A stretch of 64,000 nucleotides of DNA from Verrucomicrobiia bacterium (GTDB lineage Bacteria > Omnitrophota > Omnitrophia > Omnitrophales > Aquincolibacteriaceae). The DNA lies in the NCBI GenBank assembly GCA_035495615.1, contig DATJFP010000088.1:41763-105762 (forward strand). The letters run 5' to 3'. This document shows positions 1-51,402 of the stretch, piece after piece (positions within the stretch are counted from its first letter, which is position 1; each line of letters begins with the position of its first letter). Under the pieces are notes generated by a model. It was given only the letters and a program-made list of their open reading frames with translations. It was not told the origin of the DNA and made no database searches. The position numbers and the translations under genes are program-made.

Positions 1-300
1 AGGCGCGCGCGGCCGCGGAGCGCGCGGTTGATGTCGGTCTGCAGCGCGATCTCCCCTTCCCCGAGGGCTCGCAGGAACTGATACGCGTAGGCCATGACGA
101 TGGGATTGTTCTCGTCGACGGCCGCGGGAATCACCAGCTGCCCGCTGCGCAGGAGCGTCGAGATGTGGCGGGCATAAGCGCGGTAGATCGGGCCCGAGTC
201 GAAAAACTGATAGCCGAATTCCCTGGCCAGAGCCCGGGCGGCTGTCGATTTACCGGCCTGCGCGGGACCCGCGATATTGATGCCTTCGGGCGTTTCCAGA
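1..300 (-). other. Cytidylate-kinase-like P-loop NTP-binding module, truncated by the window edge
   Basis: Direct translation: ETPEGINIAGPAQAGKSTAARALAREFGYQFFDSGPIYRAYARHISTLL. Compare Cmk: ItIDGPxGAGKxTxxkxlAxxLgxxxLDSGAiYRxxA. The frame is still open at coordinate 3. Confidence 0.6.
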
Positions 301-3300
301 ATCTGGACCCACTGGTCGAGCGCGGCGTCGCGCTTTTCCTTCGGCAGGAGCTGGAGGAACGCGTTCACTTCGGCGGGCAGGTTCTGCGGCTGGACGCGCA
401 TTTCGGCGCGGCCATAGCGTTCGGCCTTGCGGGAAAGGCGCCAGATCTCCGGCGTTACCGCGCCCGGAGCCAGGTCGCCGATCCGCACCTGGATCGCGCG
501 CGACAGGCGCTGAAGAACGCCGGAATCGGTGTGAAAAACGTATTCGGCGCGGGTGAGCAGCTGCCCGAGGCCTTCCAGCGTCACTTCGCGGAGGTTCAGG
601 GCCTCGGCCGGCATCACCGCGAAATCGCCCAGGCCGTTGTCCGCGGCCCAGCGCAGGTAATTCGCATAAACCGAGAGTTCTTCTTCGGAGGTCTTCGGCG
701 GATCGCGTTTGACGATCCTGGCCAGATCGGCGAGCAGTTCCTGGCGCCGGGCTTCGGCGCTTTGCGGGCCGTGCTGCAGGTTGCGCACCAGCGCGTCTTC
801 GCGGCGGAGCCCGAGGCCGGGCACCACGTCGCGGCGCGAACGTTCGTTCAAGCGTCTCATGCTGCGTTCGATCTCGGGATTGGCCGCGGCGCCTTCCAGG
901 ACTTCGGCGGCGGAAACGCGAGCGATCAAGTGGCCGTCGGCGGATTCCTTGGTGGACGGAAGTCCCGGCACGTTCAAAAGCCCATCGTGCAGGTCTTCGA
1001 TGGCGAACGCCGTGCGCGGCGACTGGACCACGAAAGCGCTGAAATTCACCGAAGCCATGCCCGCGGCCGCGATCGCCTCGACATGCGGCCGCAGTCCGGC
1101 GACATATTCAGGATCGCGGTATTCGATATCCCGAATCACGCCCGCGACCGAGGCGATGTTCTCCGCCAGCGGGCCGCGCGTCTTGTAAATCTCATAGATG
1201 TTGGTCAGGCTGGCCATCGAAGGAAGCGTGACCACCCTTGCGTAATCTTCCGGATTGATCTGCTCGATCAGGCGCCGCATCTGGCGGAGCAGAAGGCGCC
1301 GTTCGGTCGAGGCGCGGCGAAGGGCGATCGAGGCCGTGGACTGCGCGGCTTCGCCCTTGGCGCGTCCCTGCGCTTCCTGGGCGTCCCGGAAAGCTTCTCT
1401 CGCGCGTTCGAGGCGCGGCAGGAGCCCGCGGATCGCGATCTGCGTGGTCATCAGTTTGAGGTGCAGCGAAAGCCGGTCAAGATAGTAAGCCAGGTCGTCG
1501 TCGGAAACCGTATTCTCGAGAAGCGCCTCGGTAACGGAACCGCGCAGCCCGAGCGCGGGCCGGTTTTCCAGCTGAAGCACGAGGCCGGACTGCGTCAGCG
1601 CGTAAAGGATCGCGCGCTGGAACGGCAGGAACGCGGCTTCGGCCTGCTCCTGTCCGAGCTTGGTAGTTTTCATGGTCCATTCGCGTCCGCGCGCGTCCGT
1701 GAAATGCGGGAACAGCGCCAGCACGTCCGGCGTATCCGCGGGCGGGATGCGCGTGATGTTTTTCTGCCAGTACCGCACGAACGACGAGGCGTCGAGCATT
1801 TCCGGAACCTGGTTGCTCGAGGTGTAGCTCACCGCGGCCGCGCCCACCGCCTGCTCGAACAGCTTGACCGTGTCGCGGCCGTAAGCGGCCGAGCGCAGGA
1901 ACGCCATGCCGCGGCGCAGCTCGTCGCCGACCGCGCGCACGACGCGCTGGTAAAGTTCGGGGCCGCGGCGCACGGCGCGCATGAGCGCGATCACGTTTTC
2001 GATGTTGTAGTAGCGGCCGCCCGGCGCTTCCGCGTCTTCGGTCGTGCCCAAAAGCTCCGCGCCCGGCTTGCCGTTCAGCCAATCCGAGTACACGCGGCGG
2101 AAGTCGTCGAGATCGATCTGCTTGATTTCGTAGATGAAACGTTCGACCTGGAAGCGGTAGCGGTCGTCCGCAAGTTCGGCTTCCAGCACGCGGTCGATCG
2201 CGGCCTCGCCGGCATTGACGATGAATTCCGCGAGCGTGATCAGGGAACTCGCCAGGCGCACGTCCGAGCCCGTGATAATCACTTCGTTGTGGCGGAAGAG
2301 GAAGGTGTTGAATTGCTGGCGCTGCTTGGCGGTCATGCCTTGGTAAAGGCGGTCGAGGATCGCGGGGTCCGCCTGCGTGATCGTGATCGGCCCGGGCGCT
2401 TCCGCGGTGCGGGACAAGTCTTCCGCGCGGCGCGAGATGCTGTTGGCGATCAGAAGCTCGCGCAGGTAAGAGCCGAGAAGCTTGGGTTCGCTCGCGCGCC
2501 GGATCTGGTTGGTCCTGCCGTCATAGTCCGTCTTATGGCCCAGGTTGACTTCGCTGTACGGGAAGTGCAGGTGGTACACCATACCTTCGATCGCGGTGCG
2601 GAGAAGCGCGTTCGGATCGAACGTGGTTTGTTCGGGCTGCGCGGTTTCCGAGACTTCGTCGAACACGATCCGCTCAGGCGGCGTCAGGCCTTCCTCTTCG
2701 AACCAGCGCCTCACGTCGTCTTCGGTGAGCGGGCCGGCAACAGGAGCGGCCGGAGCGGGAGCGCCTTCGGCCGCCGGCGTCGCCGGAGCCGGAGCCGCGG
2801 GAACGGGCCCGCGCGTTTTCGACCACTGGAACTGGCTTTCGCCTTTGTACGGGGCGGTCTTGGACGCCACGAGAAATTCTTCGACTTTGGCCGCGCCGCG
2901 TGTCTTGCTGAGCATGAGGGCTTTCAGGAAGCCGGTGATGATACCGCCGGAAACGCTGTCCACGAAGCGGATGTCGGTCTTGGGATCGATGCCCGCGGCC
3001 AGGACTTCCGCATAAATGCCCTCGGCGATCCGGTTGAATTCCGGATCCGTGCGCATGCGTTCTTCGAAATACGGCAGCAGCGCGTCGTAGAAGCGGCGTT
3101 CGCGCACCGCGGCGTCCGCCGTGCCCGCCCGATTCTCGCGTTCCTCGTCCTCGCGGAAGAGGCCGCGCACTTCGCCCACCATGCGTTCCATGACCGGGTA
3201 CGCGTTGCCGAGCTTTTCACGCGACACCTGGATGAGGACGTTTTTCGACTCGTCGAATTCCGCGCCCTGCATCATCTGCTTCGTGATCCAATAGTTTGCG

Positions 3301-6300
3301 CCGTCGCGGGCGAGATAAACATTGACCTTCTTGTCGTCGATCTGATCCACGACGTAAGGCAGCAGGCGGTTGATCGCCACCAGGGCGTGGTAGAAGGTGT
3401 ACTTGCCCCTGTTCGCCGGGTCATAGGCCTCGCGGATCGCGTTCTTCAGGTAAGAGATCCTGGAATCCAGCAGGTAGCGGCGGACGTCTTCGGAAGCGCC
3501 GGTCCCCGCGATTTGAGCTTTGAGCTCCGCGGCTTTCTCATCGAGCTTTTTCAGGATTTCGTTTGCATCGTAGGCTTGAACTTCAGCGGTGGGCTTGTAA
3601 AAGGCATTGAGGCGCATTTCGGGACGCAGGACGGGGCCGGACAAATCGATCTCCTGCGCCGGAGGCCCGCGGCGCGTGAATCTCTTGGCCGCGGCCTGGT
3701 TCACGAACGCGGCATTGGCGCGGCGCAGCGTGCGGTAGTTGTCGAACTGTTCTTCCTGGCTGCTCGGCGCGTGCACGCCGTTGGCGGCCGCGAACGTGGC
3801 GCGGTCCGGCGACTGCCAGGAACGGCCGAGGTCGAGCGTCTTTCTCATACTGCCGGAAATCAGCGCGCGATAGATCAGGCTGCGGAGCGAACCGTACTGC
3901 GTGCCGTACGCCTTTTCGGTCGACGCGGGGCCGACGACGATGGTGCTCAGGAATTCCTGCATGCCCACGGCGTTGTAATCGCGGCCGCCGAGCAGCGCTC
4001 TCGCCTGCTCGTCGGACAGGCCGTAATCTCTCACGATCTGAGCGCGCGTGACGCCGGGTTTCAGCTGCAGCGCGACGGGCTGCAGGCCTTCGTTCAGGTA
4101 GTTCCACAGGAATGCGAGCGCGCGCAGGCGCGGGTCGTCGGGATATCTCGGGCCGGCTTCGCCTGCCGGGCGGTTCGTGGCATGGAGCGTTTCGGTCAGC
4201 CACTCGTAGAACGCGGGGCCGTTACGCTCGTCGATCGCTTCGATCGCGGGCTCGACCGGGATGCCGGTGCCGCGCAGCATTTCGGTGCGAAGGCGCAGTC
4301 CCGAATTGCCCCAGATCGCCATGACGTCGTTCTGGAATTCGGGGCTTGGATTTTCCCTGTCCGTGTGGCCGGTCACGCGTCCGGCAATGATGTCGAAATG
4401 CAGTTCCACCTGGTCGAGGACCTGTTTGCGCACGGGCCAGGGCAAATCGCCTTTCAGGACGAGAAGCAGCGGCAGCGTCGACGGGGCTTCGGTCTTGAGG
4501 GGCTTGGGAGCCGGAGCCGGCACGGTTCCCCGCGTCTTGTCGCCCTTGGTGCCATCGGCCCAGCGCACGCCGTTGCGGTTGTCCAGCGTCTTGACCTGTT
4601 TGAGCGAGGTGGACGCCAGGCCCCGCAGCGTCGGGAAATCCTGGTCCGTACGGAAAGCGGCGCCCACGGAAATCGTGAACTCCGGCATGTTCTGCAGCGG
4701 CTCGGCGCGCAGGTATCTTCCCTGCACCTTGAGTTCCCTGTTCCAGTCTTCCAGCTTGCGGGCGAGCGCGGCCGCGAGCGGCACGTTCTTGCCTTTGTCG
4801 AAAACGATGAGCGCGCGGCCGCGGTTGACCGCGATCGGATAACCCACGGTGGTCTTGATCAAGTCACGCGTCTTGTCGTCGAGCGAGCGGAAATCCTGCG
4901 CGCTCTCGGCAAGGCCGAAACGGCCGTGCGTGCCGAACGAAATTTCGGCGCGCAGCCTTTCGAGGAAACGGGCGGCAAGCGCCTTGTCGAGCGGCCGGTC
5001 ATTCGTGCCGGTGATCAGCAGCCAGGATTCGTCGGGGCCGCGGCGGATCTGGCGGGCCGCGAGCTTGGGACCGTCCGCGTCGCGGAAAACATCTTCTTTC
5101 AGGATGTCGTCGATCGCGCGGTTCATGACGATGCGCACCATGCCGGCGAACTTGTACGTGCGGCCTTCGAAGGCCGTGTGGTACTGCGTGAGGAAGTCGA
5201 TGTCGACGGTGGCCAGCGCGAACTGTGTGTTCTGCTCGATCAGCTGCCCGATGAGGCGTTCGCCGTCGCGCTGCCCCATGGCCGCTTCGGAAGTCGTCAT
5301 GATCGGCGTATCGTCGCTGATTTCGGTGGCGGTTCTCCAGGTCTCGCGCTGTTCCAGCTTCGTGGCATCCAGGAAATAAACCGGGGGCAATTCGGAATAA
5401 CGGCGGTTGCCGGCCGCGTCCCACAAGCCCAGCGTATCGTAGTTTTCCTGCCCGCGGACGAGAATCATTTCGGAGTTGAGGAAGGCATCGGCCACGTCGC
5501 CCGCGATACCGCGGTCCCCGTCGTGGCGCTCGGTGCCGGAAATGTTGCGGAGATCGAGGCCGTAAGTGGCCGGGCCGTGATCGGACAGCACGAAGCGGCC
5601 TTCCAGCTTGTGGCGGCGCAGGTGCGCGAGCGCCGGATGTTCGAGAGCGGTCTCGATGTCGCGGACCGTGAGGGCGCGGCCCACGGGCACGGCTTTGGCC
5701 ACGCCGAAAATCGTCAGGCCCTGGTTGTCGTCGAGCCATTTCTGCACCGCGAGGAGGTCCTGCACGCCTTTAGGATCGCGCGGGTTCACGTTTCCGAAAA
5801 CAAAAGTCGCCTTGGCGAAGCTTGAAAGCTGCGGAATCGCCGTGATCGCCGGAGCCGGCGCGTCCAGCACCGCGGTGATCGCCTGCGCCTGCGCGTTCGC
5901 GGCTTCGTCATGTCCGGCTTCTTTGAGCGCCATTTCCACGATGCGGTTGTGCAGCGTCACGTATTCCGGAGCGCTGAGCGTGGTGCGGAATTCACGGCCG
6001 CCCAGGAAAGGCGGCTTCCACTGGCGCACGCGGGCGGCAAAATCTTTCACGTAAGTGCGCGTCGCTTCGTTCTGGATGCCGCGCGCGTCCAGAGCCGCGT
6101 CGAGGAAATCGTCCATTCTCGCGTCGGCGGTGACAAAATCCGTGATCGGCGCGCCGGGACGATAGTCTCCGGGCACCTGCGTCAGAAGCATCTGGGTCCT
6201 GTTTCCGGGTTCGTAATGCGGGGCGTCCACGCTCTCGACTTTGTCCAGGTTGCCGAGGAAAAGATCCATCATGTCCAGCACGACTTCGGCCAGGGTGCGG

Positions 6301-9300: not shown

Positions 9301-12300
9301 TCGCTCTTATGGAAGAGCTGGTCGAAGCCGTCGGTCATGTACGTGCCCAGGTCCGTGTCCGGGCCGATGAGGCCGCGGTCGAACTGGAAGATGGCCTTGA
9401 TCTCGGCCGGCTTGTGCTTGGGAGAGGTTTCGAACCGCACACGGACGGTCTTGGCATCCACCTGCGCGACCGTGACCTTGTAGCCGGGATAATTTTTCCA
9501 GGCGTAGACAACTGGCTCTTCGAGCTTCACTTCCACGGGAATGATCTCGTCACGGGACGGCACCACTGACGGCGCCGCGTGCGCTTCCACTTCAGGCACT
9601 TCTTCTTCGGCGGCAACGCCCACGAGATACGTGCGCAGCGTCGTTCCCAGGATTTGGCCGCGCTGGGCTTCATCCGCGACAAAAGGCGCGAGCGACCAGA
9701 CTTTCGTGCTGCTCCTGCGGATGCCGATGAGTGCGGCCGCGCGGCGGGCGGTATCGCCGGCGGCAAGGCCGCGGCGGCTCGCGATTTCCGTGACCAAGGC
9801 TTCGCGTCCGTTGAGCCCGGCCCTTTCGAGGGCTTTCAGCTTTTCGGCAAAATCCGCGGCGGTCGCCGGTTCGGTCTGTTCTTTCAGGAGCGCGGCCAGG
9901 ACCTCGTCCACTTCCTTGAGAAGCGCGTCCGCCGCTTCCGGTGTGGGAGGCACTTCCGCGAGCGCGGCGATGAGAAGATCCACATTGTCCACGTAGCGCC
10001 GGGTGCCCGGATTGAAATAGCTGCCAAAGAAATCGTCGCGGAGCACCGCGGGATCGTGCACGCGCAGTTCCGTGCGCGCGAAACTCCATTCGCGGCGCGT
10101 CTCGTCTTCCTCGTCGCCGAATTCGCGCGCGGTGTCCATGGCGTCGATGACTTCGTGCACGGCGCCGACCGCGTCGGCGTCCAGGCCCGGCGTTTCTTCG
10201 ACTTCCGGCAGCGCTTCCGGCGTGAGGCCGGTGGTCGCGGGCGCGTAACGGCGGGCGGCCCAGCGGATAGCCTTTGCAGACAGGACAAAAAGAAGCACGG
10301 TCAGCGTGCCCGCCACCATCATGGTATGGAACGCCATGAAGTACCACGGGAAGCGGACTTCGTTGGAAAAGGCAAAGCCGGGCGGCGGCAGCGCGGTCAC
10401 CATGCCGTCACCGATGGAAATCGCGGATCCCACCGGGCTCATCGCGAACGGCGGGATGCCATAGATAAGGAAGACGACGGTCAGGCCCATGGTGATAAGG
10501 CCCATGGCGATGCTGACGCCTTTGGTCCAGGATTTATTTTTCCACAGGATGCCCGAGAACCAGGATGCGAGAGGGCCCATCATGAAGGCCACGCCGATCG
10601 GGAAGAACCACAGGAACCAGTGATAGTCGAGAAGCAGCGGCAGGATCGGCCCGAGAGCGCCGACCGCGGCAATGCGGAAGGCGGTCGTGACCGACCACCA
10701 GAGCAGCCTTCCCCGCTCGCGGGAAATGTCGCGGCGGATCAGGTCCGCGCGGCCCGGCGTCAGGCGCAGGGCTTCGTCGTAGGTTTCGCGGATGCCGCGC
10801 GTCACGAAGAAATTGTCCGCCAGTCCTCTCAGGCTAATGGGGATGGTAAAAAAGTACAAGTTGATCCGGAAATCAATGAGCCTGAAAAATCCGCGTAAGA
10901 GGTCCACCGCCCACATGAGGTGCATGGCCCGCAAGACAGGCTCCGGCCCGTACCATTCCATGAGCGCGCGCATCACCACGAAAACAATGCCGACCCCGAG
11001 GCCGATGAACCATCCGAACGGCAGGACCGTGGAGAAAAACGCGGCCATGCCCACTTTGGCGACGATCCATTGCGAGACGCCCGGAATGGCGCCGATCATC
11101 AGGATGCCGAGCATGGCGTGAAGGACGAGGCGGTACCAGCCGGTCCGCGCCGCCTGCCGGACTTTCGTGTCGCGCTCGATCATCGTCTCCGCCTGTTTTT
11201 CGGGCGTGGTTTCTTTCGTGGGATCGATCTCGTGGCGGAAATAGCGCGCGCCCCAGAAGCCGGTCAGGATCGCGGAAAGAATGCCCGTCAGCAGCGCGGC
11301 GCCGAAGACCGCGAGCGCGCCGAAGCCGAGGAGGAAATGCCCGATGAGGAAGACCGAGAAGAGACCCAGGCCGAACGCGAACGAGGTGCCGAACTCTTCG
11401 AAGTAATGCGCGAGCGGCAGTTCCGGCGATTCCGTGCCCGTCGATTTCCAGACCGGCTTGGCCTGCGCGGCCAGCATTTCGAAACGCACGGCGTTGGCGT
11501 GGTCGCCGCGGATGCGGGCCAGGCGCGCCTGCTGCTTGTAATGGGACACGAGCGTATAGTTGGCATAGAACTGGCGGAAGCCTTCGGCATTCGCGTCTTC
11601 GGTGAGGAACAACTTGTTCAGATAAATCAGCGTGGACATCACGGTCTCGGCCACTTCGATGGGCACGTCCGTGAAAAGGTAATTGCGCCATTCGCGGAAC
11701 ATCACGGTCGAGACGACGAGTACTGCGAGCGCCGGCAGGAAGACGGCCGGCGTGATGGGCAGAAGCCCGATCGCGAGCGGGATTGCGACGAACGCGCGCC
11801 ACACGTGTTTCGGGATGCCGAAGGTCCTATCGCGGATGCCCAGGTAAATCAGGATGAGCGTCGCGACAACGCCCAGGATCGGCGCGGTCCACAGGAGCGC
11901 GGTGAGCGACAGCCCCATAAACGGCACGAAGGCAAGGAGAATGGGCACGGCGAGCGCCAGGTATCTCAAGAACCCGGGCAGCCGGAACGTCCTCAGGAAC
12001 GGGAGCCGCACCGTGATCGGCCGCGGGCCGTTGCGCACCGCCCAGAAGAAGATGGCGGCGCCGAAGAACAGGGCGAAAAACAGAAGCGGCAGCGTGACTG
12101 AAGCAAAGATGCCGAGCGTCAGCGTAGCCGCGCTCAGGAATTTAAATCCGACGATGAGCGCGGCGATCATGCCGCCGATCGAGAACATGATGCCGAGCCC
12201 GTTGTAGAGGCTGCCATAGCGGCGGTCGAAAATCCGGTCCGCTTCCGAACGCATCTCTTCCTGGTCCTGCAGCCGGATATGCGCCGGCGCGTCTTCGGCG

Positions 12301-15300
12301 TTCGCATCCACGAACTGGTTCATGAGGCGTTCCCAGAGCGGCGCGACAAATTTCGGCGCAATGAGCGTGATCATGACCTGGAGGAAGATCGTGACGGCGT
12401 AAAGGGCGTAGAAGACTTCGGAAACGCCCGGGATCATGACGCTGATGAAGCCGATGAAGAGCAGCCGCTTCCAGATCGGCTCGCCGATGATGCCGCGCAT
12501 GACGAGGTTGTTCGGGTAGCGCGAGTATTCACTCGTGTTCCAGTGGCCGAGGAAACGCAGCGCCACGTTCGTCACGTCGAAACGTTTCCAGATGCTGACT
12601 TCGCGTTTGTGTTCGTCCGGGAAGTGCGCGGGCGTGCCTTCGGTGATCGGAACGTCGGTGAGCAGCGTGGCCGCGACCGGCAGCATGACGTTGCGCTCGG
12701 TGTCGGGCTCGGCTTCGTAGATGTTCGCGGACGATTCTTTTTCGTCGTGCGATTCCCAGATTTCCGGGTCCGCGGGATAGTCTTTCATCATTTCCGGGAT
12801 GAGGCCGTCCATGACGTCGGAACGCATGCCGAATTTACCGAACGCGCGGCCGCGTCCTTCGGTCGCGAACAGGACCACCTGGAAGAAACGCAGGGTGGCC
12901 TGGGCCACGCCCTTCAGGAAGGTGTACTGCGCGTCGCCCCAGTTCGAGTACTCGATCCACGGCTGGTACATTTTGTACTTCGCGTTGTTTTCCGAGTGCG
13001 ACATCTTCTGCACCGTGCGCAGCGCCGTATCGCGCGGCCACACGTTGTCTTTGTCCGAGATCAGGTGGTTCTTGATGCTGTTGACCGGGTCGCCGATGTT
13101 CAGCGGATTGCCGCGGTATTCGCCGTAATAGAGCTGGCCGTGGGCATTGCGGCGGAAGTAATCGCGGCCGGTCATGTCCGGCCCCGTGTCGCCGTGCGTG
13201 AGGTAGCGGTTCAGGTTGTAATACGACCACGGCTTTCTCACCTGCGACTGGCGCGGGAACACGTAGAACTTGTCTTTGCCGAAATCGCGCCACAACTCGT
13301 AGGCCAGGCGCGCCGTGCGCTGCTCGCGCGGGTCGCTGAGCGCGAGGAGGCGCGACATGTCGCCGTTGGCCGCGGCCCAGCCCGCGTCCAGGATGCGCTG
13401 GATCTGCGGCCACTGGCCGTCGGAAGTACCGCCGTCGAAAATGACGCGCATGTTGTGAAGCGGGTCCGGATCGTCCGGGTCCGCGGTGTCGAGAATGCCC
13501 TGCATGCTCTTGCGCGCGCTGTCCATCACGATATCGAGTTCGGTGATGCGCGCGACGTAGGTGATCGCGCTCTGGTCGATTTCTTTTTTGCCGACTTCAG
13601 GCAGCCCGCGCTCCATGCTGCCGAACGAGAACATCCAGGTCACGAGGCTGAAGCCCAGCGTGATGATGATGCGCAGAAGATAGAAGGTCGCGATCACGGA
13701 AAAGAGGTTGGCGCCCAGGATCAGGTAGCCGGAGAAAATGCCGCCCTTGATCAGCGTCAGCGCCGTGTCGATGACGAGCGGGTTCTGGCTGAACATGTAA
13801 CCGAACACGTACCACAGCGTGCCGAAGAGAATGCCGGAATGGAAGAGCTGCCAGAGCGTGGCCTTGCCGAACTTGCCCACGGAGGCCGGGACGTGCAGCG
13901 TGAACAGGTGCCAGCCGAAAATCGAGATCCTTCTTTCCACGTTCGGGCCCGGAAAGTCGTTGGTCCTGCCCCAGATCGACTGCGGGACCAGCAGGTCGAT
14001 GAGCGCGCCGGTAAGCGTCGGGATAAATCCCGCGGAAACCATTTCGCCCGCGAGCAGGATCGCCAGGCCATACACGATGGCGGCCAGCGGCAGGAAGGCG
14101 GGCAGCAGGAGTTGAATGATCAGGACCGCGGCGCCCGTGATGCCGATGATCGAAAATTTCGCGACCTGCGGCCGGTAATCCGCGTCGATGACCGAAAGCA
14201 GCCGGTAGGCCAGGAAGGCCGCGGACAACAGGCCTCCGAGCAGAAGGACAGCCGGCACCAGGAATTGCGCGGCGAAATAACCGATGAGGCCCAGTGTGAG
14301 CCCGGTGAGCACGCCCATGACCGTAAGGCGCTTGCCGATGTTCGCGTACGGATTATTTTTGGCGGCTTCGCGCCAGGCCACGCCCACGCGGTAGAACGGC
14401 TTGCGCAGCGTGGAAAGGCTGAAGAGCTGCATCACAAAGCGCGCGAGCACAAGCCCCAGGATGACCAGCGCATGCGTGGCCAGTGTCCCCGGCTTGTTCA
14501 GGTCGTACAGGCTGCGGAAAAAGCCCCAGACGCCCGAACGTTCTTCTTCGGGCAGGAAGCGCTGCAGGCGGCGTTCGATCTCCTGCCGGTGCGCTTTGTT
14601 GACGCTGCGCTCGGCATACGTAATGAAAAGTTCTTCGGCGTCCGAACGCATTTCCTCGCCCGGAGGCAGGTCGCCGCGGGTCTCGCGCAGCACCTGCAGG
14701 ATACCCACCCTGCGGCGCACGTCGCCGCGGATGTCCATCAGCAGCAGGAGTTCGGTCTGCGTGAGCGCGGGAATCGAGTCGGGAACCGTCGTCGGATCGG
14801 TCGCCTGCTGGAAGTAACGGCCCGGATAAAGAATGTTGATCTGGGCCTGGGCGCTCACGATGCGCAGACGCTGGTGCGCTTCCATCACGTCATCGACAAG
14901 CAGCCGGATGTCGTTGGGCAGGAGTTCGCCGCGGCGGATTCTGTCGACCAGCGCGGCCACGATGGCCGGGTCGGTCAACGAGCGGCCGCCGAGCCAGTAG
15001 CGGGCGCGGCCGAGATTCTCGGTATCCAGCCGCGAAAGCTGCTGGCTGACGATGCGCGTGAGCTGCTGGGTCACCATTTCGTTCAGTTCGCGGTCGGTCA
15101 CGTAAGGAGTCACGGGCCGCTCGGCCAGACCAATCTTCAGCCACACGTCCGCGAGATAAAGCGCGTGATCGATCGGGAATTCGTACCAGTGCATGGCGAC
15201 AATGGGATCGCGGTTGAAGTCCGCGAGATCGGCGCGGGCCCGCTGAAGCAGGACGCCGCCGACCGTCGGATCGACGAGCGATACCGCGATGGCCTGGGTA

Positions 15301-33300: not shown

Positions 33301-36300
33301 ACGAAAGAAACGTCATCGTCGTCGGCAAAAGGATTCGCGCGTTCCAGCCTCTTTTCCAACCCGTCTCCGGGGATCGAGGAGGCGTCCCGCGCGGCCTTGG
33401 CCAGCGCGTGCACGGTCTGATCCAAAGGCAGGGTGCGCGTCATCTCAACCAGTTCTTCCATGCCCGGGATCGGCATCACGCGGCCCACGACCGAGATCGT
33501 GGCCAGCGGCTTGCCGGGTTTGTTGGCGAGTGTCGTCGTCCGTATCGTGCTCAAACCGGCAGGCGTGCTCTTGTCGCCGCCGTCGGAATAAACCAGCGCC
33601 CGCGTTCCGGGAGGCACGTCCACCTGGGTGCGGTTGTTGCTGCCCAGCAGAAGAGCATCTCCGGAAAGGAATTCGTCGTGCTTGTGGCGGACGCCCAGAT
33701 AAAGCTCCAGGTTCTCCTGCGTTGTGAAGCGCGGAAGCGTCTCGCCGAAATCTTTGGCCTCCACCTTGCCGTCCGGGAGAATGAAAATGCCGGTGCTGTC
33801 GCCGTAATCGAGACCCAAGCCCGCGTATTTTTTCTTATCCGGATCGGCAATCTGCCGTGTTTCCGGGTATTCCCAGACAAGACGGATCGTGAGGGTGGTC
33901 ATGGCCCGCGAATGAATCTGCCGGGCCCGTTTGGCCTCGGACAAAGCTTCATTGGCCGCATCGACCGCGTCCTCGAGGACTTTCAAGGCGGCCTCGGGCG
34001 TTTGCGCCGCGAGCAGCTTTTCCCGGGTGGCTTCCTTCTCGATGGCGGCGATCACGATAAGCGCGGCCTGCCGCCCGTCCGGCTGCCCTCCGGCACCGTC
34101 CGCCACCGCGATGAGGCCCCGGTCCGGCAGGTTGAGAATGGCGTCTTCGTTGTTCTGGTCCGCCAGCGGTTTATTGATGCGGTACACTGCGGGAGCCGTG
34201 TAAGCCCAGGTCGTAAAACCCGTAGCCTTGCCTTCGATAGCTCTCTTTTTCGCGTCAAAATCATCTCTTACCCAAGGCCTGATCCGCTCCGGAAGCGCTT
34301 CGATCTGGCCTTCGACCGCCGCCAACTCCCCCGCGCTTGAATTCAGCGTCAGCGCGTCGACTGCCGCCCGCACCGGCATGTAACGGCGCCGGTCTTCCTG
34401 GATGCGCTGGGTAATCTGCAGCTTCTTGGCATCGGCCGCGCGGCCGATCTCGTCTTCGAAGCGCTGATAAACGCGCGGCGTGGTTTCTTCTTTGGCGCTC
34501 TCGACGTTTTCGTCGACGATGGCGATGCTGAGGATGTTGATGTCCGCCTTCTGCAAGTCCTGGATAAATTGCCGGAGCCGCTGCTCATCCCTCTTATCCT
34601 TGGCCGCGATCTTTTCTTTCTTGGCCCGTATGGCTTCCTGGACGTCGGCACGCTGCCGCAGCCGCGCATCCGTCAAAATCTTGGCCGCTTCCCCTTCGAC
34701 ATCGGCTTCCGCGACGGTTCTGGGGTCCAGGGCTGTGATCTTGCTAATGGCTTCGAACGCCGCCTCCTCATCCGCGGCAACCCGCGTCCGGATGGCCTCG
34801 TTCTTTTCGGCGAGCCGGGCCTGTTGCAGCCGGGCCGCGGCGTCCTGCGCGCCGTTCAGCCGGTTTTCCAGCGGTGTGACGTCCGAAAACGCATTGAGTG
34901 GGGTCAGCGCATCGACTTTGGGCGTAATGTCCGCTACGATCAGGCCCACGACTTCCCCGATTTCCCGCTTCAAAGCCGCCTGCAGTTCCGTGTCTTCCTT
35001 AATCTGGTCCGCGCGGCTGAGCAGCGCTTCGGCATCCGAAACCTGCGCCGCGGCAACATTCTTGCGGAGGTCTCCCAGGAGCCTGCGTACGTCCGCCGCG
35101 ATGTCGTTGTTCGAGCGCGAACGATCCCCGATCGACTGCCGAGCGGCTTCGAATTCTTCTTTGAGCGATTCTTTGAGATCTTCCCGGTCCGCGACACGCG
35201 CTTCCTGAGCCTGCACGTCCGATTCGTTTTTGACCCGGCGGAGCTGGATCTTGATATCCGCCATCAGGTCGCGGTCGAGGCTCTCGCGCTGCGTGATGGC
35301 CTCTTCCTTGGCTTCCACCTCGCGCAAAAGACGCGCCGCCCGTTCGCCCCGGGCGCCGGTCACGCGCGCCCGCAAGCCCTGCGCGGCGGTAAGGTCGCTG
35401 CGGTCAGTGAGCTGCGCGATCTGCGGTTCGATCGCATCCATGATCTTTTCCGCGGCCGCGTCGATCTCGCCTTTCACCTTGTCTCTCAGTACGGCGCCCG
35501 CGATCTGATCCGCCTGGTCGGCAAGGTCCTGCATGGTGCGGACATAAACGCCGTCGATCGCGGCCGTTTCCGTAATTCTCAGGCGCACCGCGGCGGCGGC
35601 CGTGTCATCGGCCTGGATGCGGCGCTGGATCGCGCCGCTGATGTCATTGGCTTTTTGCGCGAGGCGGTTGGCGCGCTCGGTCTTCGCATTGACGAAACGG
35701 CGGCGCTGCGCCTCGACTTCCTCTTCGGTGCTGAGTTCGCCGAGCCGGTCGAGAGACTCGTCGATGTGAGCGGCGACAAGCACCATTTTGCGTTCGATGA
35801 GCGCCTCGAGAGGGCCGCGCATTTTCGCGTTCTTCAAGCCGGCCAGTTTTTCCGTGACGGCTTCGACGTCCTGCAGCGCGGCCGTTTCCGTGTCAAGGCC
35901 CTGAAGCGCCCCGCGCACGTCCTGGTCGATCGCGCCGTCCTGCCGGATCCGTTCCTGGATCGCGGTTCTTTTCTGCGTGGCAAGATCAAACAGCTCGGGA
36001 ACCGATTCCGCTTCCTGCATCCGCGCTTCCTGCGCGGCAACGTCCTTTTCTTCGTTCAATTCCGTGAGCGCTTCCAGTTTTCCCCGGATGTCGGCCGCTA
36101 CAAGCCCGCGCGACTGCTCGATCGCGGCAACAGTCCTGTCGCGAATGGCCACGGTCACGATTCCCTGCGCCCGGGCTTTCGCGGTCTCAAACGGCTTCAC
36201 CGTTGCCGTGGCCGGCGTTTTGGGAAGGCCGCCGAGGATTTCCCGCGCGGTTTCTTCGTCGCGGCGTCCGCGGTCGCGGATGCGCGTCTTGATGTCGGCG

Positions 36301-39300
36301 GCGAAACCTCCGATGCGCTGACGCTGCCGTTCTTCGGGCAGCCGCGCCACGGCCGCATCGACGTCCGCTTCCGTGCTCTGTTCGTTGGCGGCGAGCGCGT
36401 TCATGGCCGCCTGCGCGTCCCGGATCAGTCTCGAATCTTCTTCTTCACGTTCCCGCAGGAAATCGCGGCGCGCCAAAGCCGCTTGCCGCAATCCTTCAAC
36501 TTCGGGCGATTTGGCGTTCTTCAGCCGGTCTTCCTGGGCGCGGATGTCGTTGACGTCTTCCGCGGCGGCGATTCGTTCCCGGATGTTCTGCACCACGGCA
36601 ACGCGCTTGGCCTCGATCTGCGGCCTCGCTCCTGTTTTCAAATCCTCATAAGGTACGGCTTCTGCCCGCTCGGCATAAGATTCGATGACTCCGAGCGGCA
36701 CGCCGTCTACGCCAAAGCCCGTCACGTCGCCGACCAGCCGTTCCATTGTTCGCTGGTAGTAATCGTAAATCTGGGCTTCCATCTGAGTCCGCTTGGCCTC
36801 GAGCCGCGGGAACACGAAAAGAAGGAGCGCGTGAAGGCTGGGGGTCGATTCGGTTTGAGCCAGGAGGTTCTTTTTCGCGCGCGCGTAGGCGGTTTGTTCC
36901 GCCGCGGCTCCGGCCTCCTGGTATTCTTTCAGCGCGCGGACGAATTCGTAGGAACTCTTCTGGTCCAGGGGCGGCATTTCCGTGGAAGTCAGCATGGCCG
37001 CGGCTTCGGGCACGATCTGGTCCGGCTTGTCGAGCTGTGCCGCCATGGCCGAGATGAGCCGCGATTCGTACTCGGCGAGGGCGGCTTCAGTCGTGCTGAG
37101 GCGGGCGCCGATGCGCGATTGAAGTTCCGAGACAAGAGGCGCGGGACTGTCGGCCGTTCCGGCAAGCGCCGCGGCTTCCTGGCCCAGGCCCTGGAGGCTC
37201 TGGTAATTTTCGTGCGGATCGCCGCGGGTCTGCTCGAGACGCTGGGCAATGTCGCGGAACTTGATCGTGTTATCGACCTGCGGCGTACGAACTTCGCCGG
37301 GCAGCACTTCGAAAAAGGCAATGACCGCCAGGATGGCGTCGAAATTCGCGGCCACATCCCCCATGTGGGGCTGCAGCGCGCCTTGCAGGAGGGTTTGTCC
37401 GCGCGCGGCAATGATGCCCGGAATCTGGGGCCTGTCCGCTTCGGAGGCCGCGCCGCGCTGCGCGTACGTGTCTACCAGGATCTGCGGGCTCATGGCCTGC
37501 GCCGTCGTGGTCTGGATCAGTTGAAACGCCCGGGCCAGCTTCAGGACGTTCAGGGCGTCGTTATTTTCAGGAGAAAATTTCGTGGTGTCCCACGTGATGG
37601 CGGCCAGACGCTCGAAGGAGTCCGCGCGGTTGATTTGCTTGGCCAGCCGGCCGAAGCGGGATTTTTCCGTGCCGCGCCATTTGATCACTCCCCAAATGGC
37701 TCCGGCTCCGGCCGCGAGACCCGCTGCGATTAAAGCGGGCCCGGTAAGATTGGGCGCGTTGACCGTGACGCCTCCTGCTTGTTCCGCCAAATACTGATAA
37801 AGTTCGTAAACGCCGTAAACCGCCACGCCGGCGCCGGTGAGAACTCCCAGGCCGAGCAGAATGCGGTTTCTCCAGACGCGGGCCGTCTCTTCCCGTCTTT
37901 CCAGTTCGGTCTTTCTCGCGCGCGCGCCGTCCTGCTCCGCCGCGGGCAGATCATTGATCACAGCTTCGGTAATATCGGCCGACCGCCGGGCTGCTGCGAC
38001 GGCTGCGCGCGCATCCTCGATCTTCTTGAGAGCGTCGCGCTTTTCCCGGGCCTGGTCCCGCTCGCCGTCGTTTTCGAGATCCGCGAGCACCGCGTCGGTA
38101 ATCTGCGCCGACTGCGTGGCCGTGGCGACCGTACTTCTCGCGGCTGCAAGGCGCGCCGCCTGGATCGCCGTCCTCTTGCCTTCCGCGACTCCGGCGAGCC
38201 TCGCCGCTTCCGTCGTCTGAGCTCCTTCCAGACGCGCCGTCTGCGCGGCCACCTCTTCGATCGTGCTGGCGTCGGTCAATGCCGTCAACTTGCCTTCGAT
38301 GTCCGCCACGATTTGCGTGACTTTGCCGCGGATTTCATCTTCCACCGCCCCGCGAGCGGCCCCGTCTTTGATGCCGGCCGCCAGAGGCAGAAGAGCTTCG
38401 GCGTCGCTTATTTTCGCGGCAGCGGCATCGATCTGTCCGAGCTGTGTCCGGATATCGCGCGCTTTATCCTCGTCACCCCGCAGCCGGTCGCGAATCTGTT
38501 CCACGGCGGCATCCGCCTGGTCTTTCACCTGGATGCGGAGACGTTCCTCCAGACCGTTCACAATGGCGGCGAGCTGATCTTCCGTGGCCGTTTCCAAATC
38601 CAGGGCTCCGATCGCGCGCTTGGCCTCAGCGACCGCGCGGCCGTCCGCTTCGATTCTCGCCTCGATGGCTGCGCGTTTGGCTTCCGCCAATTCCCGCAGC
38701 CGCGCTGCTTCGGGAGTCTTGGCATCTTCGAGGCGTGCGGTCTGCGTCACCACCGATTCGGGAGTGTTGAGTTCGGTGAGGGCATTCAATTTGCTTTCGA
38801 TGTCGGCGACGATCTGCCCGACTTTGCCGTTGATCTGGCTTTCGACACTGCCGCGAAGCGTCGCGTTCTGGATCTGCGCGGCGCGCGTCAGCAGGGCTTC
38901 CGCGTTTTCGATCGTGGCGCTTTCAGGCTGAACCTGCCCGAGATCCGAAAGGATGGCGCCGGCTTTTTCGTTGTCGCTGCGGCCGCGCTCGCGGATCGCG
39001 GCAATCTTGGCATCCGCTTCGTCGCGCACATGATCACGCAGGCGGGCCGGCAGCCCGCTGCGAATGGCTTCAACGGCGTCTTCCGCCGCCGTGTTCACAT
39101 CAATGTCGTCGATCTGGCGCTTGGCTTCGACTATAGCCCGGGCATCGGCCCCGAGCCTGTCGCTGATCGCCTGTTTTTTCTGTCCCGCCAGATCGCGCAG
39201 GCGTCCGGCATCGGCAGCGGCGGCGCCTTCGAGCCGCGCAGCCTGGGCATCCGGGTCAGCCAGCGCATTCAGTTCCGTCATGGCGTTCAACTTGCCTTCG

Positions 39301-42300
39301 ATGTCCGCGACAATCGCGGTAACGCGGGCGTTGATTTCGCCCTCGATCGCGCTCCTCAAGGTTTCTCCCTTGATCTGTTTCGCCCGCGGCAACAAGGCTT
39401 CGGCGGCGTGCACGTTGGCATCGCCCGGAAGGAGGGCCGCAAGATCGCCGCGGATCGCTACTGCTTTTTCATCGTCGCTTCTCAAACGTTCGCGGATGGC
39501 CGAGAGCGCCGCCGCGACATCTTCCGCAATCTGGTCACGCACGCGTTCGGGCACGCGCGTCTCGATGGCTTGGACCTGGGCAGGCGTCGCGGTTTCGGGA
39601 TCGAGCTGGCCGAGGTCCTGTTTGGCCGCCGTGACGGCTTCGCGGTCCGCGGCGATGCGCCTCGTGATGGCGTCCATCTTGCCGCGCGCCAGATCGCGAA
39701 GGCCTGCGGCTTCCGAGGTAAGCGCGTCTTCGAGGCGCTGGACCTGCGTGTCGACTTCGGCCGCCGCGCTCAACTCGGTCAAGGCTTCCAGTTTTCCGCG
39801 GATGTTTTGGACGATCCCGCCCACTTTCGCGTTGATTTCATCCCGCACGGTTTCTCTCAGAGCGGGGTTCTTGATGTCCGCGGTCTCCGTCAAAAGGGCT
39901 TCGGCTTCTTTGACAGCGGCCGTTTCAACCGGCAGCAGTCCAAGCCGCTCACGAATGCTTTGCGCTTTTTGTCCGTCGGTTTCGATGCGCTGGCGGATCG
40001 CAAGCAGGGCCGCCTGCGCTTCGGTGCTCACCTGGCCGCGCAGACGTTCAGCAAGACCGTTCACGACGGCTTCGACATCGGTGGCCGCGGCTTCATTTAT
40101 ATTAAGGCTCGTGATCGCCTGCTTCGCCTGGCTTACGGCGAGCTCGTCCGCCCGGATCCTTCTCTCGATGGCGGCCGATTTTTCTTCCGCAAGCGTGCGC
40201 AGCCGGCCCGCTTCGGACGTGGCCGCGTCTTCCAGCCTCGGCGTAATCGCCGTCACGCTGGCGGGCTCGTTCTGGTCCGTCACGGCATTCAATTTCCCTT
40301 CGATGTCCGCAACGATCGCTTTGACTTTCTGATTGATCTCGCCTTCGACCGCGGAGCGCAGCGTTCCGTCTTTGATCTGCCCGGCGCGGGTCAGCAGCGC
40401 TTCCGCGTCTTTGATCGCCGCCGTATTGGCAATCGCTCCGAGGTCACCCCGGATGGCCGCCGCCTTTTCGGTATCGCCCTGCGTGCGTTCGCGAATCGTG
40501 GCGGCCGCGGCATCCGCTTCGGCCTTGACCTGATCACGCACCCGTTCGGGCACGCGATTGCGAAGGGCTTCTACGTCGTCCACCGCGGCCGTGTCCAGAT
40601 TGAGCGCCGCGATCGCCTGCTTGGCTTCGCGCACGGCGCGTTCGTCCGCGTCGATCCGGTTTTGAATGGCCCTGGATTTCTGCTCCGCCAACTCCCGCAG
40701 CCGGGCCGCTTCCGGCGTCACCGCGCCTTCAAGCCGCGACGTCTGGGCCGTCACTTCTTGGGCCGTGCTGAGTTCCGTCAAGGGCGTCAGCTTCGTTTCG
40801 ATGTCCGCGGCGATCTGGCCGGTCTTGGCATTGATCTCGCCTTCCACGGCCGGACGCAGCACCGCATCTTTGATCTGCGCCGCGCGGGGAAGCAGCGCTT
40901 CCGAATCCGTGAGCTTGGCCGTCGCGGCGGCGATACCCTGCAGGTCCGAACGAATCGCCGCGGCTTTTTCTCCGTCGCCCCGCGTGCGGTCGCGGATCGT
41001 GGCAATGGCCGCGTCCGCTTCGGTCTTCACCTGCTCGCGCACCCGCTGGGGCACCCCATTGCGGAGGGCTTCCACTTCGTCCACCGTGGCCGTGTCCAGA
41101 TTGAGCGCCGCGATCGCCTGCCTGGCGCCGCTCACTGCGAGCGTGTCGGATTCGCCGCGGCCGGAGATGGCCTGAGACTTTTGGCCTGCCAGCTCCCGCA
41201 GCCGGGCCGCTTCCGGCGTCACCGCGCCTTCGAGCCGCGCCGTCTGGGCCGTCACCTGGTCGGCCGTGCTTTCGTCCGTCAAGGCGTTCAACTTTCCTTC
41301 GATGTCCGCGACGATCCGCGTCACGACCGCGTTGATTTCGCCTTCCACGGTCGTCCGCGCGGTCTGGTCCTGAATCTTTGCGGCGCGCTCGAGCAGCGCT
41401 TCCGCGTCTTTGATGTTCGCGGCCGCCGGCACGATCCGTCCGAGATCCGCGGCAAGGGGCCCGCGAAGCGCCGTGTCTTCTTCGCCCCGCTTTAAGTCAT
41501 CCCGCCGCCGTTGAGCCCCTGCCAAAATCACGTCGTAGGCGCTTCTTTCATCCCCGGCGAACGTCACCCCCGTCACAAGCCGTTCCGCTTCATCAAGTTT
41601 CTGCTGCGCCTCGGCCGCTGTGTCCGCAGCCTGGGCTGCGGCAAGCAATCCGACCAGCGAAACAACATTGCCTCGGCGCGTTACCTGCTCTTGTTCGGCT
41701 CGCTTCAAGTCGCGCTGCTTTACGCGCAGGGCTTCGAGGGCTTCGGTATAACGGGCTTCTTCCTGGCCGGCAAATGTGACCTGGCTGCGCAGTGCCGTGA
41801 CGGTCGCGATCGTGGCTTCCGCCTGCGTCGACGAGGTCGGCTCCACGGCCAAAAGAGCCATCAGGTGCCGGACTTTTCCCGAACGTTCGGCTTCCGCATC
41901 TTCGTCCGTCTTGAGACGCTGCGCGGCTTCGCGTGCAAGCCCGAGCGCATCGGTGTACTGCCGCTGTTCATTCCCCTGAAATTGGACGCGGCCTGCAAGG
42001 TCTTCGGCTTCTCGGATCATTTCCTCGGCTTCGGATGCCGTTGCGGCGCGCTGCGCGCCTGTCAGCAGGCTCTGGATGCGGCGCACCGAGGCTTCGCGGT
42101 CCGCGACAAGTGCCCGATGCTCGGCGATGAGTCCGGCCAGCGCGCGCGTGCGAGTGCTTTCAGCGGCGCCTTCCAGCCTTTTTTCCTGGAGGTCGAGGAC
42201 GCCTGTGTCATAAGTGCTCGTGACCTGGGTCCGGATATTGGATTCGATGGCAAGCGCGGTTTGTTCGACTTCCCCTTCGAGCGTCGTGCGCAGGCCTTGA

Positions 42301-48796: not shown

Positions 48797-49228
48797 TTAT
48801 TCTTCGGGATCGTCTTCCGGGGTCTTCTTCGGGGCGAGGTTATCTTCGATGCATTTGACCAGGTCCTTGGTACTGACCGGCTTAGAAAGGGCAGGTTTAA
48901 TGGTAAACGGCCGCCCCCCTACCACTCCGCCGAAGGCTTCGCTTTGCCCCTTGCCCACGGTAGCGGTAAGAAAAACGATGGGGGTGTTATTGATCTTTTC
49001 CGTTTCTCGGATTTCGATGGCCACCTCCGTACCACGCTTGTCCGGCATAATCACGTCCAGAAGAATGAGGTCGGGTTTGAAGTCTTTGGCCGCCTGCAGC
49101 CCCTGGGCGCCTTTGGTCTCCACGCGGACCTCGAACTTTCCGAGGGCTTCCAGGTTTTTTTTGATCATGCTTGCGAATTTTTCTTCATCGTCGATAACAA
49201 GGATTTTTTTCTTTGCCGGGTCTGCCAT
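48797..49228 (-). CDS. Single-domain response regulator (CheY-like receiver)
   Basis: 143 aa. KILVIDDEE...PDLILLDVIMPDKRG...PIVFLTA...IKP gives a canonical acidic pocket, phospho-acceptor Asp, Thr and Lys. AGGAGG lies 4 nt upstream of the ATG. Confidence 0.9.
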   Translation of the reverse strand: MADPAKKKILVIDDEEKFASMIKKNLEALGKFEVRVETKGAQGLQAAKDFKPDLILLDVIMPDKRGTEVAIEIRETEKINNTPIVFLTATVGKGQSEAFGGVVGGRPFTIKPALSKPVSTKDLVKCIEDNLAPKKTPEDDPEE

Positions 49229-49239
49229 GATTCCTCCTG

Positions 49240-50802: not shown

Positions 50803-50877
50803 GACGACACACCGGTCTTCGGGAATAAACCAGATTCAGGAAGGAAATGTTGGGGCGCGGGACGTAGGAAGCGAGGA

Positions 50878-51243
50878 TTACTCTTCCCCAAGATTGCTTC
50901 GCACTTTTTTTAGCAGGTCTTCCGGGCGGTAGGGCTTCACCATGTAGTCCTTGACGCCTTCGAGCTCGAACAGGTCTTTCATCTTATCCTTGGCAGTCAG
51001 GACAATCACGGGAGTCGCCTTGATGGCCTCATTGCGCTTGAGCGTCCTTACGAAAGTGTAGCCGTCCATCTTGGGCATGAGAACATCGACGATGATGAGA
51101 TCGGGATGTTCTTTTTGGACTTGCAGGAGGCCTTCTTCCCCGTCATGAGCCGTCACTACCTGATAGGAACACGCCACCAAACGGTTCTTCAGCAGTTCCA
51201 CGATGTGGGGGTCGTCGTCAATGACTAGGATTTTTTTTGACAT
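50878..51243 (-). CDS. Single-domain response regulator (CheY-like receiver)
   Basis: 121 aa. [15 protein letters not shown]...[16 protein letters not shown]...PVIVLTAK...DYMVKP. Confidence 0.95.
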
Positions 51244-51326
51244 TCATCCTCAATGCCTTCGCCGGGAGAGGGCCCGATGTCGGCCCCTAAAATATCGGCC
51301 TCTCTCCAGGGAAAATTAAGCGAAGA

Positions 51327-51402
51327 TGGTGGACCTGAGGAGGATCGAACTCCTGACCTCATCGTTGCGAACGATGCGCTCTCCCAGCTGAGCTACAGGC
51401 CC
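51327..51402 (-). tRNA. tRNA-Ala(CGC): tRNA-Ala, anticodon CGC, with genomically encoded CCA
   Basis: The minus strand reads GGGCCTGTAGCTCAGCTGGGAGAGCGCATCGTTCGCAACGATGAGGTCAGGAGTTCGATCCTCCTCAGGTCCACCA. It folds by hand into a 76-nt cloverleaf with stems of 7, 4, 5 and 5 bp, anticodon loop TTCGCAA, T-loop TTCGATC, and the G3:U70 alanine identity pair. Confidence 0.95.

Follow-up and report, generated by a model that had tools for sequence, protein, structure and literature searches.

The giant open reading frame and the domain at its visible end

A 64,000-nucleotide (nt) stretch of DNA from contig DATJFP010000088.1 of the bacterial assembly GCA_035495615.1 (positions 41,763 to 105,762 of the forward strand; hereafter the window, to whose positions all coordinates refer) carries on its minus strand a giant open reading frame (ORF), at the visible end of which begins a domain that resembles bacterial cytidylate kinase (Cmk). 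An earlier note on this DNA had described a Cmk-like motif at the very edge of the window, in a frame that was still open at coordinate 3. With regard to the frame, an ORF scan agrees with the note, since no stop was found in 16,181 codons, from the last visible codon at 3-5 up to 48,545. The first ATG of this frame lies at 48,530, preceded by an AT-rich stretch, and from there the visible gene spans 16,176 codons, or 48.5 kb, and is still open at the window edge. It thereby falls in the size class that defines giant ORFs in Omnitrophota, namely a single uninterrupted ORF of more than 20 kb that encodes at least 10,000 amino acids (aa). The GC content at the three codon positions stays at about 0.68, 0.44 and 0.81 along the entire length, the last 530 nt included, and this uniformity therefore indicates a single coding frame from end to end.

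The likeness to Cmk noticed earlier is borne out by profile comparisons, which yield a match above the Pfam threshold. The peptide encoded at 171-284 on the minus strand, GINIAGPAQAGKSTAARALAREFGYQFFDSGPIYRAYA, scores 34 bits against the Pfam family Cytidylate_kin (PF02224), with a gathering score of 26, an E-value of 3.2e-8 and coverage of profile positions 1-37 of 211. Against the NCBIfam model TIGR00017 (cmk) the score is 41.3 bits (E=1.4e-10), while the models for adenylate and shikimate kinases reach only 15-17 bits. Among solved structures, the best matches by sequence are without exception cytidylate kinases (1q3t, E=2e-6). Furthermore, alignment A4 with E. coli Cmk, for which the reference sequence is identical to PDB 1kdo in 227 of 227 residues, shows that the window copy retains G12, G17, K18, T20, D35, S36, G37, Y40 and R41; of these, G12, G17, K18, T20, D35, G37 and R41 are invariant in the alignment. 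In Cmk, Ser36 and Tyr40 touch the cytosine and Arg41 touches a phosphate (PMC3603445). The layout is also that of the bacterial enzyme (PF02224/TIGR00017; 1cke, 1kdo, 2cmk), with the P-loop 5-10 residues in, followed by the motif D-S/T-G-x-x-Y-R. The visible part of the domain, counted from its first Gly, amounts to 94 residues and comprises strand 1, the P-loop, helix 1, strand 2, helix 2 and the start of the acceptor-binding insert, and an AlphaFold2 model of this part has its secondary structure elements in the expected order. The motif [AG]xxxxGK[ST] occurs once in the 16,176 visible residues, as the P-loop of this domain. Judged from the sequence, the similarity of the encoded peptide to Cmk is well beyond chance and specific to that family.

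Several observations bear on whether this domain belongs to the giant protein. No start-like codon is found within 28 codons upstream of the P-loop. Over the last 330-600 nt of the giant ORF, the GC content at third codon positions (GC3) is 0.82 and the codon choice favours the giant-gene model by a log-likelihood ratio of +0.10 to +0.14 per codon; in 16 flanking genes GC3 is 0.60-0.73 and the ratios are mostly negative. An exhaustive HMMER search with the last 1,200 residues against 1.84 billion representatives returned 45 matches, among which P0012 (E=1.2e-25), P0015 (8e-23), P0016 (5e-21), P0031 and P0032 span both the P-loop and the ~250 residues that precede it. These residues belong to an all-helical module, and the arrangement of this module and a Cmk-like domain is also present in P0002, P0009 and locus L084, the last of which was found by a metagenome scan with a two-sequence alignment. 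In the closest relatives the helical module always precedes the kinase-like domain. Another relative, P0001, is colinear with the window tail over more than 2,000 residues before its contig ends inside the helical module. Moreover, a hidden Markov model (HMM) built from the complete Cmk-like domains of giant proteins gives the tail of the window 51 bits, compared with 34 for the canonical Cmk model. By these comparisons, the helical module and the Cmk-like domain, in this order, form a conserved cassette that other huge proteins of Omnitrophota also contain. The lack of a nearby start, the giant-gene codon usage and the conserved cassette together lead to the conclusion that the kinase-like domain is an integral module of the giant protein.

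With regard to the helical module itself, its AlphaFold2 model has a mean predicted local distance difference test (pLDDT) of 59, rising to 72-91 for tail residues ~100-255, and a Foldseek search with this moderately confident model gave nothing better than E=0.26. A profile search of a 5.8-billion-cluster collection with the cassette alignment A2 returned zero matches and missed the known members too, probably because generic P-loop words overloaded its word pre-filter, so that it is not evidence of absence. As for membrane topology, a Kyte-Doolittle scan with a 19-residue window, a crude and untrained measure, counts 27-29 hydrophobic segments in the giant protein, including one at residues 12-30 and clusters that extend to residue 12,750; by the same measure the last ~3,400 residues, with the kinase-like domain among them, look soluble.

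Complete domains in relatives and their key residues

The window contains only the beginning of the domain, and its relatives give an account of the rest. In terms of Pfam positions out of 211, the match runs over 1-205 in P0012 (71 bits), 1-209 in L084 (83 bits), 1-210 in P0014, 1-177 in P0002 and 1-189 in P0020. Measured from the first Gly, the domains of the relatives are 207-244 residues long, the complete domain having a size of 210-260 aa, so that at least ~115-150 codons are missing from the 94-residue window copy. The earlier note had estimated that only the first ~90 residues of a ~220-aa fold are visible and that several hundred more nucleotides of the gene lie outside; both estimates agree with the complete domains, which call for at least ~340-450 nt more. 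The remainder of the domain is probably encoded past coordinate 1, and the protein probably runs on well beyond the domain. A total of 486-3,722 residues follow the domain in L084, P0009, P0014, P0023, P0024, P0007, P0011, P0025 and P0020, that is, in most of the relatives, and "several hundred nucleotides" may thus be a large underestimate.

Where the gene ends is a separate matter. In P0012 a true stop lies 16 residues after the Pfam match and one residue after the match to the subfamily HMM, and in P0002 the stop follows 34 residues after the domain. An end of the window gene ~400 nt past the window, as predicted from P0012, was considered and rejected because L084, P0009 and others run on for hundreds to thousands of residues; on such comparisons, the end of the protein is not predictable from its relatives. 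To find the sequence past coordinate 1, the last 500 aa were used as query in a protein search and the last 300 aa in pattern scans of genome and metagenome collections, neither of which gave a match. An exact match search with the adjacent response-regulator protein returned contigs of 2.6-2.8 kb only, and P0046, a 100%-identical fragment, covers only the 5' end of the giant gene. Identical fragments come from the samples JGI 3300045391 and SRR9009773.

Two further observations concern the region that follows the domain in relatives. L084 (ORF residues ~450-520) and P0009 (~1420-1500) are conserved right after the Cmk-like domain, with a stretch of the form '...V(F/L)L(V/K)GG(A/V)RGG...', and the colinear block therefore reaches past the domain in these two; the same post-domain module might be present in the gene of the window. 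Additionally, P0002, a 2,379-aa protein with CofD-like and Cmk-like domains that ends in a stop (locus L086, GCA_026387165.1, JAPLMG010000012.1), is followed after 157 nt on the same strand of this Omnitrophota metagenome-assembled genome (MAG) by a gene of 5,483 aa with APH, HATPase_c and PGM_PMM domains. At L086, either a giant gene is split into consecutive large genes or the break is an assembly or frameshift artefact.

The complete domains also allow the residues on which Cmk depends to be compared, and a residue table was drawn up for 12 giant-embedded Cmk-like domains, E. coli Cmk and two canonical Cmks. Lys18 is invariant in the giant-embedded domains, and Arg41, Arg131, Arg181 and Asp185 are mostly kept. 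Conversely, all 12 lack Asp132, in whose place stands G, A, S or N and beside which the four residues 'MGTV' are deleted; they likewise lack Arg188, while the canonical Cmks in the same alignment keep both D132 and R188. Ser36 and Arg110 vary among the giant-embedded domains, and P0007 has lost R41, R131 and R181 together. Gly15 of Cmk is replaced by Arg in the giant-protein subfamily (Gln in the window copy), and 'APL' of Cmk by 'YPG'. Both Asp132 and Arg110 are cytosine-binding residues in the Cmk of Yersinia, of which the variants R110A, R131A and R188A are inactive (PMC3603445). The absence of Asp132 and Arg188 from the relatives therefore makes canonical CMP kinase activity doubtful. Probably the acceptor is not CMP, or is not read as Cmk reads it. 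The subfamily is a divergent one, specific to giant Omnitrophota proteins, and is probably not a bona fide CMP kinase. The relatives match the whole 211-position profile of bacterial Cmk.

Taken together, these data favour, with a probability of roughly three in four, the reading that 3-284 encode the first ~40% of a module of the cytidylate kinase family, with the nucleoside monophosphate (NMP) kinase fold, which is integral to a membrane-anchored giant protein of more than 16,176 aa and is not a housekeeping cmk gene. Unlike bacterial Cmk, a free protein of ~225 aa, the domain is preceded by more than 16,000 residues of a giant membrane protein. On this reading, ATP would be bound via the P-loop Lys and a phosphorylated, nucleotide-like acceptor would be held by Arg41, Arg131, Arg181 and Asp185, and the domain would be one of several enzymatic stations in a part of the giant protein given over to phosphoryl and phosphoribosyl transfer, which in relatives includes ARMT1-like, ribofuranosyltransferase-like, HAD, APH and HD modules. 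The residues that handle ATP and phosphate would have been kept and the acceptor would be read differently, unless the domain were a nucleotide-binding pseudo-kinase instead.

A number of points weigh against this reading. The significant match to canonical Cmk is confined to the first ~38 residues, up to 'YRAYA', and the remaining ~55 visible residues align only loosely, to the Cmk-specific insert. R110, R131, D132 and the LID of the window copy lie past the window edge. The equivalog cut-off of TIGR00017, 135.55 bits, is not reached at 41.3 bits with 38 of ~215 positions alignable, a shortfall that is unavoidable because the domain is truncated at the window edge. Furthermore, with Arg188 lost, the domain could be something other than a kinase. 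Lastly, by the crude hydropathy count the tail may lie on either side of the membrane, and a domain that depends on ATP would serve no purpose outside the cell.

Among the alternatives, a pseudo-kinase or nucleotide sensor appears unlikely. Such a domain would have kept the fold and the P-loop without transferring phosphate, and its binding of ATP or another nucleotide would serve a structural or regulatory role or assembly. The loss of Arg188, along with that of Asp132 and of the four residues beside Arg131, in 12 of 12 domains speaks for it, as do the inactivity of the R188A variant of the Yersinia enzyme (PMC3603445), the variable S36 and R110 and the depleted P0007. On the other hand, K18 remains invariant and R41, R131, R181 and D185 are mostly kept across domains that share 25-35% identity, a retention that suggests selection on phosphoryl-transfer residues, and the domains neighbour other catalytic phospho-enzyme modules.

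That the domain is instead a generic P-loop nucleoside triphosphatase (AAA+, STAND or another kinase), resembling Cmk through a chance Walker A motif, is very improbable: weak matches to AAA ATPases (p97/CDC48, ~20 bits), RFC and nSTAND3 do appear at relaxed thresholds, but the Cmk models score 15-25 bits above any other P-loop family, the Cmk-specific DSGxxYR motif is present, and relatives with the same cassette match the Cmk profile end to end. Hardly credible at all is a separate housekeeping cmk fused only in appearance, through a lost stop, a sequencing or assembly error or read-through, since, common as cmk is as a small gene, and although cmk is known in fusions, with weak matches here to the NCBIfam fusion models PanC/Cmk, Cmk/Der and AroA/Cmk, there is neither an in-frame stop nor a start-like codon for 28 codons upstream, codon usage and GC3 are those of the giant ORF and not of the host-like flanking genes, the ~260 aa upstream are homologous to sequence in the same position in at least seven independent metagenomic or MAG proteins, and the giant-protein subfamily HMM outscores the canonical Cmk model. 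The earlier note had also raised the matter of a separate cmk elsewhere in the genome; for the 64-kb window, the part of the genome that was covered, the answer is that it holds no other cmk.

Modules, composition and neighbours of the giant gene

The features of the giant ORF are collected in Table 1. One of them, a partner module that lies ~600 residues upstream of the Cmk-like domain, has no Pfam match and adjoins the Cmk-like domain, before or after it, in relatives. AlphaFold2, run on a 19-sequence alignment, gave a confident model of this module with a pLDDT of 84.5 and a predicted template modelling score (pTM) of 0.87, for which Foldseek ranked Bcs3 first, although weakly (E=0.12-0.24). 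As a lead only, the predicted model suggests a fold like that of the glycan ribofuranosyltransferases that depend on phosphoribosyl pyrophosphate (CriT-like). As in Bcs3 (PDB 8a0c/8a0m) and the Thermobacillus enzyme (7shg), helical bundles are predicted around a five-stranded core like that of phosphoribosyltransferases. The likeness extends to the neighbours, since the Bcs3 and Thermobacillus multienzymes are paired with a HAD phosphatase and so is the partner module in relatives, where it is fused to HAD domains in P0030 and P0035 and stands in P0014 in the order HAD, Cmk-like, partner, APH, HD. The Bcs3 ribofuranosyltransferase acts together with a HAD phosphatase and a CDP-ribitol transferase, the latter of which sets CMP free (PMC10299916).

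Table 1. Features of the giant ORF, with nucleotide positions in the window and the basis of each call.
Feature	Position	Strand	Basis
Visible giant ORF (16,176 codons from ATG 48,528-48,530)	3-48530	minus	No stop; uniform GC at codon positions 1, 2 and 3; synteny and colinearity in relatives
Cytidylate-kinase-like domain, visible N-terminal 94 residues	3-284	minus	PF02224, TIGR00017, subfamily HMM, AlphaFold2
Acceptor (NMP) site motif D-S-G-P-I-Y-R	180-200	minus	Alignment A4; equals E. coli Cmk D35, S36, G37, Y40, R41
Walker A / P-loop G-P-A-Q-A-G-K-S-T	243-269	minus	Codon listing, alignment A4
All-helical module, ~260 aa, preceding the kinase-like domain	288-1073	minus	HMMER matches, AlphaFold2
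Partner module, ~550 aa, predicted ribofuranosyltransferase-like fold	2031-3683	minus	Recurrent neighbour of Cmk-like domain in relatives
Weak ARMT1-like (damage-control phosphatase) similarity	5430-5762	minus	Pfam, 17 bits, below gathering score
Last and densest hydrophobic, transmembrane-like cluster (residues 11,354-12,750)	10281-14471	minus	Kyte-Doolittle 19-residue scan, crude
PP2C_2 phosphatase match exactly at threshold	33888-34160	minus	Pfam, 24 bits
Tandem ~167-aa protein repeats	38181-41513 (wider 34251-43433)	minus	Copies 46-60% identical, others more diverged
Conserved N-terminal domain, ~700 aa, one N-terminal hydrophobic helix	46431-48530	minus	43 homologues; Omnitrophota-specific

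Domains of the ARMT1-like and CofD-like kinds are also found in relatives. The ARMT1-like similarity, below threshold in the window, scores 38 bits in the homologous region of P0001, above the gathering score of 25, and P0009 carries this family too. Again as a lead only, this company suggests that the tail of the giant protein may be a phosphoryl- and phosphoribosyl-transfer assembly line. A more specific proposal, which we regard as distinctly unlikely, is that the tail forms a membrane-tethered factory for a glycan or teichoic-acid-like polymer, in which a re-tooled Cmk-fold domain beside the ribofuranosyltransferase-like module would supply or regenerate the nucleotide, for instance by re-phosphorylating CMP from CDP-activated donors, or would phosphorylate a different acceptor. 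Were it true, the domain would represent a new, Omnitrophota-specific branch of NMP kinases with a non-canonical acceptor site that lacks Asp132 and Arg188.

With regard to composition, no cysteine occurs in the 16,176 visible residues, where ~103 would be expected at the frequency of 0.64% in the flanking genes (P ~2e-45); the two remaining frames of this strand hold TGT/TGC codons 671 and 290 times. The relatives P0001, P0003, P0007 and P0009 are cysteine-poor as well, at 0.08-0.2%. Extracytoplasmic exposure or some other selection may lie behind the absence of cysteine. The giant gene has a GC content of 61-67%, with a GC3 that rises from 0.73 to 0.86 along the gene, compared with 50-55% GC in the 16 flanking genes, and a host-like composition is confined to its conserved 5' 2-3 kb. 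In syntenic orthologues, the first 2.5-8.5 kb differ only slightly in composition. Copies of the ~167-aa repeat at residues ~2,340-3,450 are 46-60% identical, more diverged copies are found at ~1,700-4,760, and the repeats have no Pfam match.

A plus-strand ORF at 165-5825 (1,886 aa) was considered and rejected as an antisense shadow of the giant gene with its high GC3, because its first codon position coincides with the third position of the minus frame and all homology lies in the minus frame. An Rfam scan placed no family over the kinase-like region, its sole match being a tRNA at 51,330-51,402. Directly upstream of the giant gene, at 48797-51402 on the minus strand, lie genes for a response regulator, a PAS histidine kinase with an N-terminal receiver, a second response regulator and tRNA-Ala(CGC). 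This two-component set could regulate the giant gene.

Giant proteins of Omnitrophota

The surroundings of the gene and both of its ends point to Omnitrophota. The flanking acyl-CoA ligase has its best matches, at 48-61% identity, in MAGs of Candidatus Omnitrophota. In five Omnitrophota MAGs (L004, L006, L008, L016 and L022), sequences 50-66% identical to the first 600-700 aa of the giant protein are encoded in synteny, downstream of the acyl-CoA ligase gene, by ORFs in which no stop appears before the retrieved locus ends, over as many as 2,850 codons. The N-terminal domain has 43 homologues, and all the named ones belong to Candidatus Omnitrophota or Omnitrophica. Past the first 600-700 residues, the similarity among the related MAGs vanishes though the ORFs stay open. 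A conserved N-terminus followed by vanishing similarity suggests an anchor or export domain and then a fast-diverging body.

The named relatives of the tail are likewise all from Candidatus Omnitrophota, with lengths of 2,379-6,093 aa, and five of them carry the automatic GenBank name '(d)CMP kinase': MCX5666743.1 (2,379 aa), UCD55254.1 (4,150), MFA4991171.1 (5,751), NQT90762.1 (5,395) and MDD5135748.1 (4,760). These proteins are homologous to the window tail over hundreds of residues and share with it the domain of the same Cmk-like subfamily and the partner module. They differ from it in that the identity is only 23-38%, in that they are much shorter or truncated by their contigs, and in that the order of the Cmk-like domain and the partner module is changed in one group.

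Giant ORFs are common in Omnitrophota, where they have been described as membrane-associated, poorly conserved and provided with few annotated domains (PMC10066038; 10.1101/2023.11.21.568195; 10.64898/2026.06.07.730766). The searchable text of these three papers makes no mention of a cytidylate-kinase domain. The gene of the window resembles the published giant ORFs (Seymour 2023, West-Roberts 2023 and the 2026 preprint) in its phylum, its size above 20 kb, its N-terminal anchor and its many hydrophobic segments, as well as in its few divergent domains, internal repeats and scattered enzyme-like modules, which include phosphotransferases. A Pfam scan at E<=0.01 over all 16,176 visible residues detected no more than three families, namely Cytidylate_kin, PP2C_2 (at threshold) and the ARMT1-like one (below threshold). 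The 'Archaeovorin' class is characterised by glycosyltransferase, methyltransferase, glycosyl hydrolase, peptidase, SAM-methylase and NUDIX domains, usually with SecA_DEAD (West-Roberts 2023, 10.1101/2023.11.21.568195). None of the domains of this class was found by the scan in the visible part, and the unseen C-terminal part could hold them; the domains of dockerin-class giant proteins had no Pfam match there either. SecA_DEAD, reported in most full-length Omnitrophota giant proteins (West-Roberts 2023, 10.1101/2023.11.21.568195), is either absent from this one or located past the window edge. The gene of the window is thus a further example of the known giant proteins of Omnitrophota, with some subfamily features that are undescribed.

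For the window itself, the result mainly explains an edge effect and does not reveal a new kind of system. For the databases, '(d)CMP kinase' is a misleading name for proteins of 2,000-6,000 aa, since it reflects one domain and not the function of the whole protein. Giant genes account for much of the small genomes of Omnitrophota, and what they do is hardly understood because few of their domains can be recognised; a recurrent module with the Cmk fold and an altered acceptor site provides a clonable handle of ~230 aa for the biochemistry of these giant proteins.
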